NCBI GenBank assembly: GCA_033648345.1
Contig: GCA_033648345.1_4121.1
Source of the DNA: a phage
Reading direction: 5' to 3' (one strand)
DNA length: 64,000 nt
In this document: one piece after another, positions 41,860 to 60,902 of the stretch
Layout of the letters: every line of letters starts with the position of its first letter
Numbering within the stretch: the first letter of the stretch is position 1
Notes under the pieces: generated by a model
Told to the model about the DNA's origin: nothing
What the model saw: only the letters and a program-made list of their open reading frames with translations
Databases searched by the model: none
Made by a program: the position numbers and the translations under genes

Positions 41860-41990
41860 ATTGATTCAGTACTGAATAATAGTACTACTATATAGAAAGA
41901 TAGTTCCCCTGGATGGTTGCAGTACTGAATGATAGTACTGAATAATAGTTCCCCTATATAGAAAGAAAACTATTTTAAAAAGTATTTGTA
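41860..41990 (+). repeat. direct repeats of about 45 bp built from CAGTACTGAATAATAGT and CTATATAGAAAGA
   Basis: cagtactgaataatagtactactatatagaaagatagttcccct / tagtactgaataatagttcccctatatagaaagaaaac. Confidence 0.75.
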
Positions 41991-42081
41991 GAAAGTACTT
42001 GCAAACTAAGTTTAACGGCGTATAATGTTTTACATCGAGAGCGGGAACACTTCCCGCTACATATTACGAGAGATTAAAACG
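41985..42081 (+). promoter_or_regulatory. promoter + 5' stem-loop cassette (PeSL-like, class AGTACTTGCA)
   Basis: AGTACTTGCAA..TATAATGTTTTACATC; hairpin GCGGGAA-cac-TTCCCGC. Confidence 0.7.
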
Positions 42082-42444
42082 ATGGCGACTCAAATCACTA
42101 AAATTATTGCTAACCTGGTTAACTTCCGCGACGAGATGAAAGGTCTTCCGGCTGAAACGGTAAAAATTCACATCGCAGCTTATCGGGAACTTATTGCAAT
42201 GTTGCCGCTTAAGCGTGAACAATACGCCGCGACCGTGATGCTTGATGCGATGATCCATAAGATGATCGCCAGTGATTTGACGATGGCGTATCAGTATATG
42301 GGTGAATTGTTCGCGGTGTATAGTAAACCAGTACCAGGAATGGAAAGTACAGAAGTATTACACGGTTTAAATTTAAAACAAGATGCATGGGATAATATGC
42401 CTCGTTTCCTGGTATGGGCTGACAGTGGCAAGATTTACGAATAA
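42082..42444 (+). CDS. hypothetical protein
   Basis: ATG 42082 (MATQITK); track start 42025 begins in the TATAATG of the -10. Confidence 0.7.
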   Translation: MATQITKIIANLVNFRDEMKGLPAETVKIHIAAYRELIAMLPLKREQYAATVMLDAMIHKMIASDLTMAYQYMGELFAVYSKPVPGMESTEVLHGLNLKQDAWDNMPRFLVWADSGKIYE

Positions 42445-42536
42445 GTTTTAGAAAGTACTTGCAAACTAAGTTTAAAAGCGTATAATGTTTTACATCAGGT
42501 GGGGAATAGTTCCCCACTATATAAGAGGATTAAAAA
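42445..42536 (+). promoter_or_regulatory. promoter + 5' stem-loop cassette
   Basis: AGTACTTGCAA..TATAAT; hairpin GTGGGGAA-tag-TTCCCCAC; GAGGA RBS. Confidence 0.7.
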
Positions 42537-42776
42537 ATGGCTAAATCAAAAATGTTCTTAGGTCACAAAAACAAAACTCATTGGAATGTAAGCCTTTGGA
42601 TTAATAACGATGAGTCATTGTACCGGTTGGCCCTGGACTTTATTGCCGCCAATACTAATCGCAATGATGCGGCCCGTCATATGATGTTATTTTTAGAACA
42701 GACTGGACAAGATAAAACACCGGACGGATTCAAATATAGCACTACTGCGATCCGTGCGGCGATGGTTGGAATGTAA
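42537..42776 (+). CDS. hypothetical protein, paralogue of 44576
   Basis: GHKNKTHWNVSLWINN.ESLYRLA...TPDGFKYSTTAIRAAMVGM shared. Confidence 0.75.
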   Translation: MAKSKMFLGHKNKTHWNVSLWINNDESLYRLALDFIAANTNRNDAARHMMLFLEQTGQDKTPDGFKYSTTAIRAAMVGM

Positions 42777-42861
42777 TAGAATTTATTTAAAGTACTATCG
42801 CAAAAAATGATAGTACTTTATAATAGTGTTTTATTCATACACCAACGATAAGGGCAACAGC
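42777..42861 (+). promoter_or_regulatory. promoter (AGTACT-flanked, TTATAAT type), no 5' hairpin
   Basis: AAGTACTATCGCAAAAAATGATAGTACTTTATAAT; same type at 55790. Confidence 0.5.
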
Positions 42862-43128
42862 ATGAATATTAAGTATTTTGCGACGCGTGAACAAGCTCGG
42901 ATCGCCGCACGCCAGGACGGGGCAACGTTTAAAGATATGGGCGTACAATCGGAACGTGGTAAACGTTGGGCCATTATAAAGCGTAGTACCGCCAGATCAT
43001 TACAGTACTGGTTAGCGGCGTTAAAAAGTCCCGATAGTGTATCGCGTCGAGTGGTAGAAATAAAGCTCGACCGAAAGGGCAACCGCGTGACCGTGTACCG
43101 TACTAAAAAGATTGCAGTACTTGAATAA
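42862..43128 (+). CDS. hypothetical protein, paralogue of 55885
   Basis: KYFATREQARIAARQDGATFKDMG...RKGNRVTVYR shared. Confidence 0.7.
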   Translation: MNIKYFATREQARIAARQDGATFKDMGVQSERGKRWAIIKRSTARSLQYWLAALKSPDSVSRRVVEIKLDRKGNRVTVYRTKKIAVLE

Positions 43129-43215
43129 AAAGTACTTGCAAACTATGTTTAATGGCGTATAATGTTTTACATCGAGAGCGGGAACACTTCCCGCCTATAA
43201 CCTGGAGTAATAAAA
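43129..43215 (+). promoter_or_regulatory. promoter + 5' stem-loop cassette
   Basis: Near-identical to the 41985 cassette; hairpin GCGGGAA-cac-TTCCCGC. Confidence 0.7.
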
Positions 43216-43446
43216 ATGACTAATATGTATATGACTGAAGTTAAAACCGTAAAAGATACTACCACGAATAAAACTACTTACTTACAGCGGATCTGCGGTG
43301 TATGGCAACGTATCAGCAAATCAAAGTACTTTAAATTAACATCATATGCAAACCGTTCGGATTCATTCAGTACTGAAATAAAAGGTAATAAAGTACACCA
43401 ATACGGCACTTATTATTATTATAGCCTGGACGCGATTGCAGTATAA
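43216..43446 (+). CDS. hypothetical protein
   Basis: 76-aa ORF, GGAG RBS. Confidence 0.7.
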   Translation: MTNMYMTEVKTVKDTTTNKTTYLQRICGVWQRISKSKYFKLTSYANRSDSFSTEIKGNKVHQYGTYYYYSLDAIAV

Positions 43447-43527
43447 GCAGTTTACAAATCTTTACAATTGCCGGTATTGACTTATTTTGTCAGTACTGGC
43501 ATAATGTATTCATTGGCAGATAAGCCG

Positions 43528-43553
43528 TAGCCCATAGGGTGCGGGAGTGTATC
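43528..43553 (+). repeat. conserved core element copy F (candidate small RNA)
   Basis: TTGACT(43477)-N17-CATAAT(43500); GGC-agataa-GCC hairpin; TAGCCCATAGGGTGCGGGAGTGTATC. Confidence 0.75.
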
Positions 43554-43576
43554 TATAGAAAAAGTAGTTTATTACA

Positions 43577-43602
43577 GTTACAATTGTGCACCCGGTGGGT
43601 TA
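43577..43602 (-). repeat. conserved core element copy G, convergent with F
   Basis: Minus: TTGACA(43649-43644)-N17-CATAAT(43626-43621)..TAACCCACCGGGTGCACAATTGTAAC. Confidence 0.75.
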
Positions 43603-43693
43603 GCTGTTGTCATGGGGTATATTATGCCAGTACTTGATAATGCTGTCAATACTTTTTTTTACTATTCAGTACTGAAAACTATTTTTAAAAAGT

Positions 43694-43728
43694 ACTTGCA
43701 AACTATGTTTAAAGGCGTATAATGTTTT
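43694..43728 (+). promoter_or_regulatory. class AGTACTTGCA promoter driving the 75-nt structured element
   Basis: AGTACTTGCAA..GGCGTATAAT(43718-43723)GTTTTAC. Confidence 0.65.
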
Positions 43729-59608: not shown

Positions 59609-59684
59609 AAGTTTTATTTCAGTACTATTGACATAGCTTGATAGTACTGATGTAATAACTTTACTAACTACAAGGGGAAACATA
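59609..59684 (+). promoter_or_regulatory. promoter class AGTACTATTGACA..AGTACTG
   Basis: CAGTACTATTGACATAGCTTGATAGTACTGATGTAAT. Confidence 0.6.
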
Positions 59685-59942
59685 ATGGAACAGTTCACAC
59701 AATATCGGGTAAATCCACAAGCTATGGCCTACGTAGAAGACCATAAAACGTTACCAGTACTGCAACCAGTTAAAGGCCGTATCTATCGTGGCCTTGCCTG
59801 GGATACGGCCCAGGATGGATATAAAACCGTCGCCGTGGGGATGTATTGCGGGAATGGTGAATGGTTTGATCCTAGCAATCCGATTGCACTTGACAGTACT
59901 GAAAAAATGAAATGGGCCGACTACATCGAAGATATTTCATAA
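59685..59942 (+). CDS. hypothetical protein
   Basis: 85-aa ORF. Confidence 0.7.
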   Translation: MEQFTQYRVNPQAMAYVEDHKTLPVLQPVKGRIYRGLAWDTAQDGYKTVAVGMYCGNGEWFDPSNPIALDSTEKMKWADYIEDIS

Positions 59943-60032
59943 AAACTATTTGACAGTACTAACCAGTAATGTATAATGTTTTACATAGAGCGGGGGAATA
60001 GTTCTCCCGCCAATAGTTTGGAGTTAAACATT
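59943..60032 (+). promoter_or_regulatory. promoter + 5' stem-loop cassette (TTGACA class)
   Basis: TTTGACAGTACTAACCAGTAATGTATAAT; hairpin GCGGGGGAA-tag-TTCTCCCGC. Confidence 0.65.
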
Positions 60033-60233
60033 ATGTCTATCGCTATCGCCCTGGTTGAAGTACTGAAAGAAGCTAAAGCCAACCAGATCGACGTAAAGAT
60101 CCAGGAACTACAAAACGGCTTAATCGGCTGTACTTGTACCGCTGGTGGAGCGGCAGACTATCGAGAACACGAATCACTCGAATCACTGGTTCGGTATCTT
60201 ACCATGATCGTTGATGATTGGAGAATCATCTAA
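60033..60233 (+). CDS. hypothetical protein
   Basis: ATG 60033 (MSIAIALVEV); Chi at 60151. Confidence 0.65.
   Translation: MSIAIALVEVLKEAKANQIDVKIQELQNGLIGCTCTAGGAADYREHESLESLVRYLTMIVDDWRII
60151..60158 (+). other. Chi octamer (in coding sequence)
   Basis: GCTGGTGG. Confidence 0.9.
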
Positions 60234-60251
60234 CAAAAAAAGAATAAAAAA

Positions 60252-60284
60252 GGGATTGACTCCGGTCAGTCCCTTTGCTATTAT
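60252..60284 (+). promoter_or_regulatory. UCCG hairpin terminator with embedded -35 and downstream -10
   Basis: GGGATTGAC-TCCG-GTCAGTCCC; TATTAT 60279-60284. Confidence 0.7.
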
Positions 60285-60302
60285 ATACGCATAGACAAAA
60301 AC

Positions 60303-60328
60303 TAGCCCACAGGGTGCATAGGTGTATC
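60303..60328 (+). repeat. conserved core element copy D
   Basis: TAGCCCACAGGGTGCATAGGTGTATC; Chi GCTGGTGG follows at 60364. Confidence 0.75.
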
Positions 60329-60363
60329 TAAAATATATAGTTAATAACGGTGAGTAACTATCT

Positions 60364-60371
60364 GCTGGTGG
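60364..60371 (+). other. Chi octamer (intergenic)
   Basis: GCTGGTGG downstream of core element D. Confidence 0.9.
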
Positions 60372-60384
60372 AGTGAAAACTATT

Positions 60385-60480
60385 AATAAAAAAAACTATT
60401 GACAAAGTATATCAGTACTGCAATAATGTATCTCGTAGGGCGGCAATGGTGCGACGGCCCACAAAGTTAGGAGATTCAAA
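60385..60480 (+). promoter_or_regulatory. sigma70-like promoter (weak 5' hairpin)
   Basis: TATTGACAAAGTATATCAGTACTGCAATAAT; AGGAGA RBS. Confidence 0.55.
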
Positions 60481-60813
60481 ATGAGTACTTCAATCGCTAT
60501 CGTTAAAGCTTTCATCCGTACCAATGTTTCATCTGTATTCATCGACGGTCTGGATCGGGAAGTAGAATACTCAATCATTATCGCACAGACTGCAAACGGT
60601 GCTCGGTATATCCTTAATAATAGTGAAGCAAATCACTACTACTTCACTAAAGCTACTGGCTTTAAACGCATCGATGCTGACGTAGTATACACTAAGATGA
60701 ATAAGCTGGTAGACAAGATTAACGCGAAAGGTACTATCGATTTACAGTACTGGACCGAAACCGATCCAGAATATGGATCTCACCGCTACCTGAATCCAGG
60801 TATTAAAATGTAA
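60481..60813 (+). CDS. hypothetical protein
   Basis: 110-aa ORF. Confidence 0.75.
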   Translation: MSTSIAIVKAFIRTNVSSVFIDGLDREVEYSIIIAQTANGARYILNNSEANHYYFTKATGFKRIDADVVYTKMNKLVDKINAKGTIDLQYWTETDPEYGSHRYLNPGIKM

Positions 60814-60902
60814 AAAGTACTTGCATAGTACTTAGATTCATGTATAATGTTTTACATAGAGAGGGGGAAATGGTTCTCCCTCCTAAATTAAGGAGTTTTA
60901 TC
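60814..60902 (+). promoter_or_regulatory. promoter + 5' stem-loop cassette
   Basis: AGTACTTGCATAG..TATAAT; hairpin GAGGGGGAA-atgg-TTCTCCCTC. Confidence 0.7.

Follow-up and report, generated by a model that had tools for sequence, protein, structure and literature searches.

The closest described counterparts of the element treated here are the promoter-early stem-loop (PeSL) cassettes of T4-type phages, terminator-promoter composites whose stem-loop is placed between or over the promoter boxes in RB49/phi1 and just ahead of them in PST and nt-1, where it acts on incoming transcription; recombination between PeSLs yields indels and mini-circles (PMC2839356, PMC4122927). Here we analysed 64,000 nt of phage DNA (GenBank assembly GCA_033648345.1, contig GCA_033648345.1_4121.1; the whole stretch is called the window below), in which an array of cassettes, each made of promoter, hairpin and ribosome site, stands in front of small genes. 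Stabilising stem-loops close to the 5' end of a messenger RNA (mRNA) are familiar from the E. coli ompA 5' untranslated region (UTR), from the T7 phi10 leader GGGAGACCACAACGGTTTCCC of pET vectors and from engineered 5' hairpins, and stem-loops are known as obstacles to RNase E scanning. PeSLs are known as cassettes for regulation and recombination; the hairpins treated here are placed in the 5' UTR and have no terminator tail. We did not find this layout in the literature searched on Asteriusvirus, RaK2, CBB, rV5 and PA5oct, and further searches on Asteriusvirus promoters, RaK2 promoters and 5' hairpins in rV5, phi92 or PVP-SE1 returned nothing relevant.

By alignment, the block that carries the cassettes is the ~21.4 kb direct terminal repeat (DTR) of an Asteriusvirus jumbo coliphage of the PBECO4/121Q/phAPEC6 group. 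Megablast matched window 41900-48000 and 39500-62500 at 90-97% identity to Asteriusvirus jumbo coliphages of 350-385 kb (WPEC5, UE-S1, phAPEC6, G17, PBECO4, 121Q and others). In the alignment with vB_Ec-M-J, whose DTR is annotated at 1-21525, window position 40317 falls on base 1 and ~61725 on the DTR end. The interval 41985-60902, which holds the array, lies entirely within this repeat, which is located here between the two ends of the unique sequence and has a G+C content of 0.36-0.40 compared to 0.32-0.38 in the flanks. Some of its genes and cassettes are common to coliphages of ~135-150 kb at 80-87% identity, as confirmed for muut (Justusliebigvirus); further matches carry organism names such as Phapecoctavirus and Vequintavirinae, given here as the records label them. 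A scan for tRNA and tmRNA genes found none. The first-step-transfer region of T5 is a pre-early gene block in the terminal repeat of a large virulent phage, and the block studied here resembles both this region and the DTR of PA5oct, a related phage, in its many small genes of unknown function within a long repeat and in strong promoters of a single direction that would be served by host RNA polymerase. The PA5oct paper describes the DTR genes as highly transcribed early genes and the infection as rifampicin-sensitive and dependent on host RNA polymerase; a search of its text gave no mention of a repeated promoter-hairpin module (PMC7318152). For Sharanji, a terminal repeat of 20.7 kb is reported (PMC11895373).

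The same set of cassettes was obtained by three independent routes, namely a promoter-first scan, a hairpin-first scan and a repeat finder, which returned families of 22 copies x 68 nt and 15 copies x 95 nt. It comprises 25 clear and two weak cassettes, 26 within 41985-60902 and one at 9699-9776 (Table 1). All elements described in an earlier note on this DNA were recovered where it had placed them, its left-block member near 9774 included. The promoter consists of an AAAAA(G) tract, TTGACA or TTGCAA, a spacer of 16-17 nt and TATAAT, in agreement with the proposal of host sigma-70 promoters of early type with an A-tract: the boxes are near-consensus, and the block is the terminal repeat, which in PA5oct is the region transcribed early (PMC7318152). 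Perfect 12/12 consensus sites number 12 in 19 kb, all on the + strand. The stem, of 6-9 bp with a loop of 3-5 nt, starts 8-14 nt past the -10 hexamer in all 25 clear cassettes and is followed by the ATG after another 14-23 nt; from this position the hairpin would be transcribed from its own promoter. Chance would put ~0.1 hairpins into the 7-nt start window after 46 promoters, where 25 are observed, and the hairpin-first scan returned ~18 comparable hairpins per strand elsewhere in the window. Predicted folding energies of the leaders are bimodal, either -11 to -16 kcal/mol or near 0, with the Shine-Dalgarno sequence unpaired in every predicted fold.

Two points of the first description have to be narrowed. 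The layout had been ascribed to nearly every small gene, which is overstated, since ~26 of the ~52 open reading frames (ORFs) of at least 45 amino acids in the DTR stand behind promoter and hairpin; a further 11 combine a similar promoter with a leader that lacks the hairpin, three are preceded by a longer leader, clearly structured in two cases, and the remainder lack their own promoter. The fixed G-first polarity does hold as a regularity, found in all 25 clear hairpins with no C-first case, but it does not identify the strand, since a perfect inverted repeat such as GGGGAGAA...TTCTCCCC reads identically on the other one. We also rejected an extended -10 reading of 'CAGTACTG TATAAT' for the hairpin class, where the TG abuts TATAAT without a spacer base; the reading holds for the hairpin-less 'TGGCATAAT' promoters. 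Rfam gave no match at gathering scores in the whole window, and at E<=1 in the repeat block there were three chance-level matches only (Trp leader, mir-1000) and no matching family.

Table 1. Positions of the cassettes and of other promoter, leader and terminator elements in the window (stem arms in capitals, loops in lower case).
Feature	Coordinates	Strand	Details
DTR block with cassette array	40317..61725	+	all genes on + strand
Hairpin cassette, outside DTR	9699..9776	+	TTGACA/TATAAT; hairpin 9736-9756, GGGGATGA acttc TCATCCCC
Hairpin cassette	41999..42084	+	hairpin 42040-42058, AGCGGGAA cac TTCCCGCT
Hairpin cassette	42459..42539	+	hairpin 42498-42518, GGTGGGGAA tag TTCCCCACT
Hairpin cassette	43136..43218	+	hairpin 43178-43194, GCGGGAA cac TTCCCGC
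Hairpin cassette	44498..44578	+	hairpin 44538-44558, GGCGGGGAG tgg TTCCCCGCT
Hairpin cassette, stem partly decayed	45145..45225	+	hairpin 45187-45202, GGAGAA atgg TTCTCC
Hairpin cassette	45613..45690	+	hairpin 45649-45668, TAGGGGGA gcgg TTCCCCTG; stem just 8 nt past -10 box
Hairpin cassette	45930..46011	+	hairpin 45971-45989, AGGGGGAG cgg TTCCCCCT
Weak hairpin cassette	47478..47553	+	AAGG cgaaaca CCTT, -3.9 kcal/mol
Hairpin cassette	48010..48089	+	hairpin 48050-48069, GGGGAGAA atgg TTCTCCCC
Hairpin cassette	49830..49911	+	hairpin 49870-49889
Hairpin cassette	50059..50139	+	hairpin 50099-50118, GGGGAGAA atgg TTCTCCCC
Hairpin cassette	50646..50727	+	hairpin 50687-50705, AGGGGAAA cgg TTTCCCCT
Hairpin cassette	51080..51160	+	hairpin 51120-51138
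Hairpin cassette	51349..51433	+	hairpin 51389-51408, GGGGAGAA aaac TTCTCCCC
Hairpin cassette	53191..53269	+	TTGCAT/TATAGT; hairpin 53230-53248, AGGGGAA acatc TTCCCCT
Hairpin cassette	53813..53892	+	hairpin 53853-53872, GGGGAGAA atga TTCTCCCC
Hairpin cassette	54110..54191	+	hairpin 54151-54167, AGGGGAA tag TTCCCCT
Hairpin cassette	55112..55199	+	hairpin 55154-55173, GAGGGGAA acgg TTCCCCTC
Hairpin cassette	55383..55468	+	hairpin 55425-55444
Hairpin cassette, one G·U pair	57927..58011	+	hairpin 57968-57987, AGGGGGAA atgg TTCTCCCT
Hairpin cassette	58423..58507	+	hairpin 58463-58481, GGGGAGAA tag TTCTCCCC
Hairpin cassette	58973..59055	+	hairpin 59013-59034, GAGGGGGAA atgg TTTCCCCTC
Hairpin cassette	59309..59386	+	hairpin 59347-59365, GGGGGAG atatc CTCCCCC
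Hairpin cassette	59950..60035	+	hairpin 59990-60010, GCGGGGGAA tag TTCTCCCGC
Weak cassette, divergent	60399..60483	+	TTGACA/AATAAT; imperfect hairpin GGGCGGCAATGGTGCGACGGCCC, -9.2 kcal/mol
Hairpin cassette	60821..60905	+	hairpin 60861-60882, GAGGGGGAA atgg TTCTCCCTC
Hairpin-less consensus-promoter cassette	43814..43876	+	promoter scans
Two hairpin-less cassettes	48250-48314 and 48544-48608 (span 48250..48608)	+	68-nt core 100% identical
Further hairpin-less cassettes	47712-47776, 51662-51736, 52774-52833, 54772-54835	+	promoter scans
Further hairpin-less cassettes	55812-55887, 56593-56652, 56869-56929, 59628-59687	+	promoter scans
Promoter and 75-nt structured leader, then second promoter	43696..43810; second copy 54656-54768	+	folding and repeat finder
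Terminator-promoter composite, PeSL geometry	54520..54600	+	AAAGGGATTGACTCCGGTCAGTCCCTTT, -35 box within stem, then TATTAT, then CCCANNGGGTGC
Further terminator-promoter composites, DTR	50517-50600, 57798-57880, 60249-60330	+	same class as 54520
Terminator-promoter composites, left block	232, 3831, 4485, 6560, 7248, 11611, 12155, 12495	+	
Promoter-less hairpin of cassette family, T-rich tail	44835..44854	+	GGCGGGGAATGGTTCCCGCC TTTATTG, between stop codon and next ribosome site
Similar promoter-less hairpins, T-rich tails	56303-56321 and 45449-45471	+	

With the PeSLs of RB49/phi1, PST/T4 and nt-1/KVP40 (PMC2839356, PMC4122927) the cassettes share an early sigma-70 promoter that is near-consensus and preceded by an AT-rich tract, a stem-loop of a G-run followed by a C-run, and a Shine-Dalgarno sequence with ATG at the 3' end. 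Likewise shared are the unit length of ~70-100 bp, the many copies that all point the same way among the small orphan genes of a hyperplastic region, and differences between close relatives that are explained by recombination between units. The anatomy differs. In RB49 ORFs 185-212, which we read directly, 12 of the 14 intergenic regions have a stem that begins 13-24 nt ahead of the last base of the -10 box and occupies the -35/-10 spacer or overlaps the -10 box (as in TTGACA-GGGGATCACCGATCCCC-TATAAT), and in none of the 14 does the stem come after that box, while in PST and nt-1 it lies just upstream of the promoter; the cassette stem-loop, in contrast, is found in the 5' UTR, 8 to 14 nt after the -10 box and without a terminator tail. 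Also different are the carrier, a Rak2-like jumbo phage, and the array, which fills the DTR. The likeness to PeSLs that had been suggested therefore extends to components and gene shuffling but not to this geometry; among the elements of the window only the GGGATTGACTCCGGTCAGTCCC+TTT class (GGGATTGAC...GTCAGTCCC), with its -35 box in the stem, has true PeSL geometry.

Judged from sequence, the cassette hairpins are not intrinsic terminators, since the run of T that would directly follow such a hairpin is missing: the 10 nt after the cassette stem hold 0-3 T, compared to 6-9 for real terminators in the same window. A terminator scan flagged 0 of the 25 hairpins, none of which has a T-tail, but did flag 46567, 47298, 44835, 45449 and 56303 as well as the terminator-promoter composites of the AAAGGGATTGACTCCGGTCAGTCCCTTT class. 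The case named beforehand as refuting, that the hairpins terminate upstream genes, thus has the sequence against it. We nevertheless considered that the stem-loops could have a true PeSL function, terminating or attenuating transcription that arrives from the upstream cassette and so isolating the genes, with their place in their own transcript being incidental. The stem-loops of RB49/phi1, which likewise run from poly-G to poly-C, are reported as effective terminators (PMC2839356), three promoter-less hairpins of the cassette family (44835, 45449, 56303) have T-rich tails and score as terminators, and an orthologue of the one at 44835..44854 is annotated as a terminator in the G17 record. Yet all 25 cassette hairpins lie downstream of the predicted start, where an efficient terminator at ~+30 would abort the cassette's own mRNA and so defeat its own promoter, the RB49 stem-loops sit inside the promoter rather than after it, and canonical terminators and hairpins overlapping the -35 box are placed elsewhere in the block (46567, 47298, 50517, 54520, 57798, 60249). 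Together with the absent T-tails, this leaves the terminator or attenuator function as quite improbable.

The stem is under selection for pairing in the sense-strand RNA. For the statistics, cassettes were located by an anchor in promoter and start region that is free of structure, in six Asteriusvirus repeats and muut, giving 65 distinct hairpins with 48 distinct stems; CMSTMSU (MH494197.1; record 'UNVERIFIED_ORG') was omitted here and kept for breakpoint mapping. In CMSTMSU, intact hairpins stand at 6 of 35 anchored promoters and gene calls are fragmented, a pattern that suggests sequencing indel errors rather than biology. Covariation was scored on a loop-anchored alignment of stems only, with loops replaced by AAA; MAFFT alignments of whole leaders, and of hairpins with loops, were dropped because the arms fell out of register, and RNAalifold on whole leaders gave 5 weak pairs. 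Among the 48 distinct stems, double-sided changes occur at all eight stem pairs, amounting to 55 cells where shuffles give 15±4.8; 0 of 500 shuffles reached that number. Pairing reaches 97.9% as opposed to 85.4±0.8% in shuffles and 52-72% with the partner slid, a percentage inflated by the preselection of hairpins at >=6 bp, on which the double-change counts and the comparison of orthologues depend less. The compensatory stem changes pointed out earlier as indicating selection for structure are hence borne out. Position 4 may serve as an example with GC 37, AU 18 and GU 10, and position 6 with GC 52 and CG 12.

Positions 1-7 are paired throughout (100%), while the eighth is unpaired in 13 of the 65 stems; the eight scored positions hold 30 G·T or T·G pairs, and the 10 A·C pairs all fall on the outermost (eighth) one. 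As the wobble G·U is accepted at positions 1-7 and A·C is not, the + strand, which is the mRNA sense strand, is the strand that folds. This asymmetry fits RNA or a single DNA strand, not a double-stranded palindrome, and argues against a double-stranded operator. Between orthologous stems, nearly all substitutions are steps from G-C to G·U to A-U on the + strand. In 147 of 162 comparisons between orthologues, the downstream gene keeps its hairpin state (present or absent), and one gene can bear different hairpins in different phages. In the slot of cassette 51349, UE-S1 carries an unrelated stem, GGGAAGTA acag TACTTCCC, within an identical promoter and ribosome-site context, and in RaK2 (Klebsiella, Alcyoneusvirus) and muut the same geometry is found with unrelated stem sequences (GGGGATACA/TGTATCCCT, GGGAATGAA/TTCATTCCC, GGCGGGAAA/TTTCCCGCC and AGGCGGTGG/CCACCGCCT among them).

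These data bear on the view that the hairpin has no function and is a passenger of repeats that duplication and gene conversion have spread. Recent copies are frequent among the cassettes, the stem GGGGAGAA/TTCTCCCC alone having 7 occurrences in the window and 33 in the scanned relatives, and some genes manage without a hairpin. Neutral decay would, however, break pairs, and the substitutions are almost all pair-preserving; just one stem in the window is partly decayed (45187), at a gene where relatives carry AGGGAGAA/TTCTCCCT. Since, in addition, this position is taken by unrelated stems in three phage genera, we regard a functionless passenger as very improbable.

A recognition or protection element for a trans-acting factor, either a phage or host RNA-binding protein that represses all early messages together or a means of hiding GGAG from a RegB-like endonuclease, is unlikely as well, but would account for a shared structured element in the same place on ~25 early mRNAs, as is typical of the operator of a regulon. 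The GGAG words in early intergenic regions are cleavage sites of T4 RegB, from which secondary structure shields them (PMC3014915). The idea of sequestered GGAG, raised in the earlier note as speculation, applies to about half of the 5' arms, which contain the motif; it is missing from the other half (GCGGGAA, AGGGGAA, GAGGGGAA). There is no conservation of the loops (cac, tag, cgg, atgg, atga, aaac, acatc), and the stem sequence varies freely under kept pairing and is unrelated in RaK2, muut and the UE-S1 cassette, which argues against sequence-specific recognition; no candidate trans-acting protein was identified. Two particular sites were rejected, an RNase III site since its stems need to be longer than the 6-9 bp found here, and a CsrA-type site as the GGA is part of the stems rather than of the loops.

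Through recombination between cassette units, genes have been gained, lost and exchanged among related phages. We compared 39000-62500 by blastn with the DTRs of six relatives and chained collinear pieces. No relative covers 80% of the DTR block as one collinear piece, the best reaching 72% in 13 pieces, and 32 of the 45 unique synteny breakpoints in the block fall within cassette intervals that make up 27% of it (binomial P=1.4e-9). Direct repeats of 62-119 bp, which are the cassette itself, lie on both sides of eight distinct single-gene indels. Four of them concern genes of the window: 48312-48524, between the hairpin-less cassettes 48250 and 48544, is absent from UE-S1 and phAPEC6; 49909-50055, between 49830 and 50059, from CRJP21; 51158-51340, between 51080 and 51349, from UE-S1, CMSTMSU and phAPEC6; and 55197-55379, flanked by a 101-nt repeat with cassettes 55112/55383 being 92% identical, from UE-S1. 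The others are extra sequence in relatives, namely a 236-bp gene in vB_Ec-M-J at 42454-42533 (cassette 42459) between 80-bp cassette repeats, 451 bp in CMSTMSU at 50637-50731 (cassette 50646) with a 95-bp repeat, an extra gene at 51641-51702, and a 238-bp gene in three relatives at 57948-58016 (cassette 57927) with a 69-bp repeat. At several further sites genes are replaced between conserved cassettes, and the repeat finder lists near-identical cassette pairs at 55095/55366, 48220/48514, 49816/50045 and 51066/51335. The proposal that the cassettes are sites of modular shuffling thus holds in the comparison with six relatives.

Where a relative lacks a gene, the single cassette left is a chimera of the two flanking window cassettes. 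The crossover maps to the 3' arm for CRJP21 and phAPEC6, to the promoter for CMSTMSU and close to the ATG for UE-S1. That the crossovers fall at different points of the cassette and that hairpin-less cassettes recombine equally (48250/48544, 51662) fits general homologous recombination over ~100 bp and not a site-specific event at the hairpin. This also speaks against a role at the DNA level, in which the stems would serve a dimeric DNA-binding protein as operators, or would form cruciforms or single-strand hairpins as sites for recombination like that at integron attC. The near-perfect palindromes at operator-like positions (+5 to +25), the crossover in the 3' arm in 2 of 5 chimeric cassettes and the RB49 mini-circle junctions mapped inside the stem-loop (PMC2839356) would fit such a role; given the crossovers in the promoter part and near the ATG, the half-site sequence that is not conserved and the strand-specific wobble pattern, we hold it to be highly doubtful. 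Integron attC arrays and lambdoid morons resemble the array in being single-gene units bounded by hairpin-forming repeats that are gained or lost singly. Unlike integron arrays, the block has no evident integrase, its recombination is not site-specific and every unit has its own promoter, which integron cassettes do not; morons differ in not being bounded by shared repeats.

We therefore propose, with moderate confidence, that the cassette is a portable early-expression module of the DTR, in which the hairpin protects or insulates the 5' end of the mRNA and which doubles as homology for recombination. The stabilising or insulating function, the position of the transcription start and the early timing we infer. 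In each module, an UP-like A-tract and a near-consensus sigma-70 promoter are followed by a conserved start region (..TTACATC..), the G-first stem-loop, an unpaired Shine-Dalgarno sequence and the ATG. Transcription would start at the A of ..TTACATC.., 7-8 nt past the -10 box, placing the hairpin at ~+2 to +30 of its own mRNA, while the 3' end of the stem, 14-23 nt before the ATG, would meet the upstream edge of the bound ribosome and leave little naked leader. The hairpin may then hinder 5'-end-dependent or scanning RNase E attack and may insulate the ribosome site from upstream sequence in primary as well as read-through transcripts, the outcome being uniform and stable expression of any small gene inserted behind the module. 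As ~40 copies of ~70-120 bp in the same orientation, the modules would also provide dispersed homology through which homologous recombination deletes, inserts or swaps single genes, whereby the DTR would become the hyperplastic region of these phages.

The 75-nt leader, which lies between a promoter and a second, consensus promoter in front of the gene (Table 1), has a predicted closing helix AUCAGG/CCUGAU starting from the predicted +1, two internal hairpins and a z of about -2.2. It pairs the predicted first bases, which fits a role at the 5' end. The element also occurs in muut (locus L002 6303-6415) with changes inside the first hairpin, and it has no Rfam match.

Several observations weigh against the proposed module, in addition to the preselection of the scored hairpins mentioned above. 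The cassettes resemble the ompA and T7 phi10 type in that a hairpin which is short, stable and rich in G/C stands close to the 5' end of the mRNA and immediately upstream of an accessible ribosome-binding site, but differ in being present on ~25 messages and in a predicted 5' tail of 1-7 nt, usually ~5 nt. With a start 7-8 nt past the -10 box, most leaders would begin with ~5 nt of single strand, whereas classic 5'-terminal stabilisers reportedly tolerate just ~2-4 unpaired nt (Emory, Bouvet and Belasco 1992). The hairpin had first been placed at the extreme 5' end, which would not be so in most cassettes: the tail predicted from promoter geometry is 1-3 nt in four (9699, 45613, 53191, 59309) and ~5-7 nt in most. 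The 11 similar promoters with hairpin-less leaders and the switch of hairpin state in 15 of the 162 comparisons among relatives indicate that the hairpin is not indispensable. Breakpoints of whole-gene indels fall between genes under any mechanism, and cassettes fill most of the intergenic space, so that breakpoint enrichment alone is weaker evidence than the flanking repeats and chimeras. The literature searched yielded no transcription start, half-life or expression data for this phage group.

As a long shot, the hairpin at the 5' end could serve as the handle of a system not yet described that acts on all early cassettes at once, either a phage-encoded factor which reads the shape and position of a promoter-proximal stem-loop instead of its sequence and switches the DTR regulon off or on, or structure-directed excision of gene cassettes as mini-circles. 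If true, the mini-circle version would amount to integron-like exchange across Asteriusvirus, Alcyoneusvirus and the ~150 kb coliphages with the same genes and cassettes.

The remaining elements of Table 1 frame the array. About eight composites in the left block (232-12520, + strand) have the form AAAGG(G)TTGACTTCGGTCA(G/A)CC(C)TTTT-TATAAT before genes, with the -35 box inside the terminator stem. In the block itself, the scan finds canonical terminators at 46567 and 47298, and terminators and terminator-promoter composites split the DTR into roughly ten multi-cassette units. The invariant motif CCCANNGGGTGC occurs in 10 copies against 0.01 expected, all within the DTR (41421, 41637, 43531, 43588, 45511, 50579, 52241, 54577, 57860, 60306), ~25-30 nt downstream of a strong promoter in the nine aligned copies (41421 lies outside the alignment). 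It is found on both strands, with a convergent pair 43477(+)/43649(-), and four copies follow terminator-promoter hairpins; all Asteriusvirus repeats examined retain it, in 6-10 copies, as does RaK2 with 6 copies in 14 kb, and muut has none. The motif could represent a family of small RNAs or a cis element at the opening of each transcription unit.

AGTACT is the commonest hexamer of the window, with 275 copies compared to 21.6 expected from base composition and the highest density at 36000-60000, and CAGTACTG occurs in 63 copies compared to 0.7 expected. It is seen in all three frames of DTR genes (19/10/27), with a density of 3.95 per kb in coding versus 12.7 per kb in intergenic sequence. 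At promoters it prefers two places, one overlapping the -35 box (AGTACTTGCAA) and the other immediately 5' of the -10 box (AGTACTG-TATAAT); the minus-strand terminators at 17-34 kb are GCCAGTACnnnGTACTGGC followed by a T-run. Such a palindrome excess is unusual for a phage, and literature searches found no paper on AGTACT in jumbo phages.

The first ~1.7 kb of the DTR (40317-41985) is without a long ORF and has promoters on both strands (40682 +, 41363 -, 41704 -), the first being followed by a strongly folding RNA (-29 kcal/mol, z = -2.1). Just beyond the DTR, 62300-64000 holds tandem paralogous genes of ~70 amino acids with overlapping stop and start codons and a shared motif 'GT(N/D/Q)(Y/F)Q(E/D/G)', where vB_Ec-M-J annotates a long run of similar small genes. 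Two paralogous genes of 79 amino acids (42537-42776 and 44576-44815) contain direct repeats of 185 nt and 66 nt at 79-89% identity; their homologues are found in muut, in further coliphages of ~135-150 kb and in records labelled Campylobacter phages.

The cassettes extend the PeSL idea of regulatory units which double as recombination linkers beyond T4-type phages, to the DTRs of Rak2-like jumbo phages and to the ~150 kb coliphage muut, and add a second architecture in which the stem-loop is part of the mRNA leader instead of a terminator. They also constitute ~25 natural, compact parts of promoter, putatively insulating hairpin and ribosome site with naturally varied stems, which could be used in E. 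coli to measure the effects of 5' hairpins on mRNA life and translation. For the Asteriusvirus group itself, they offer a concrete and testable account of why the DTR is the most mosaic part of genomes that are otherwise 93-96% identical.

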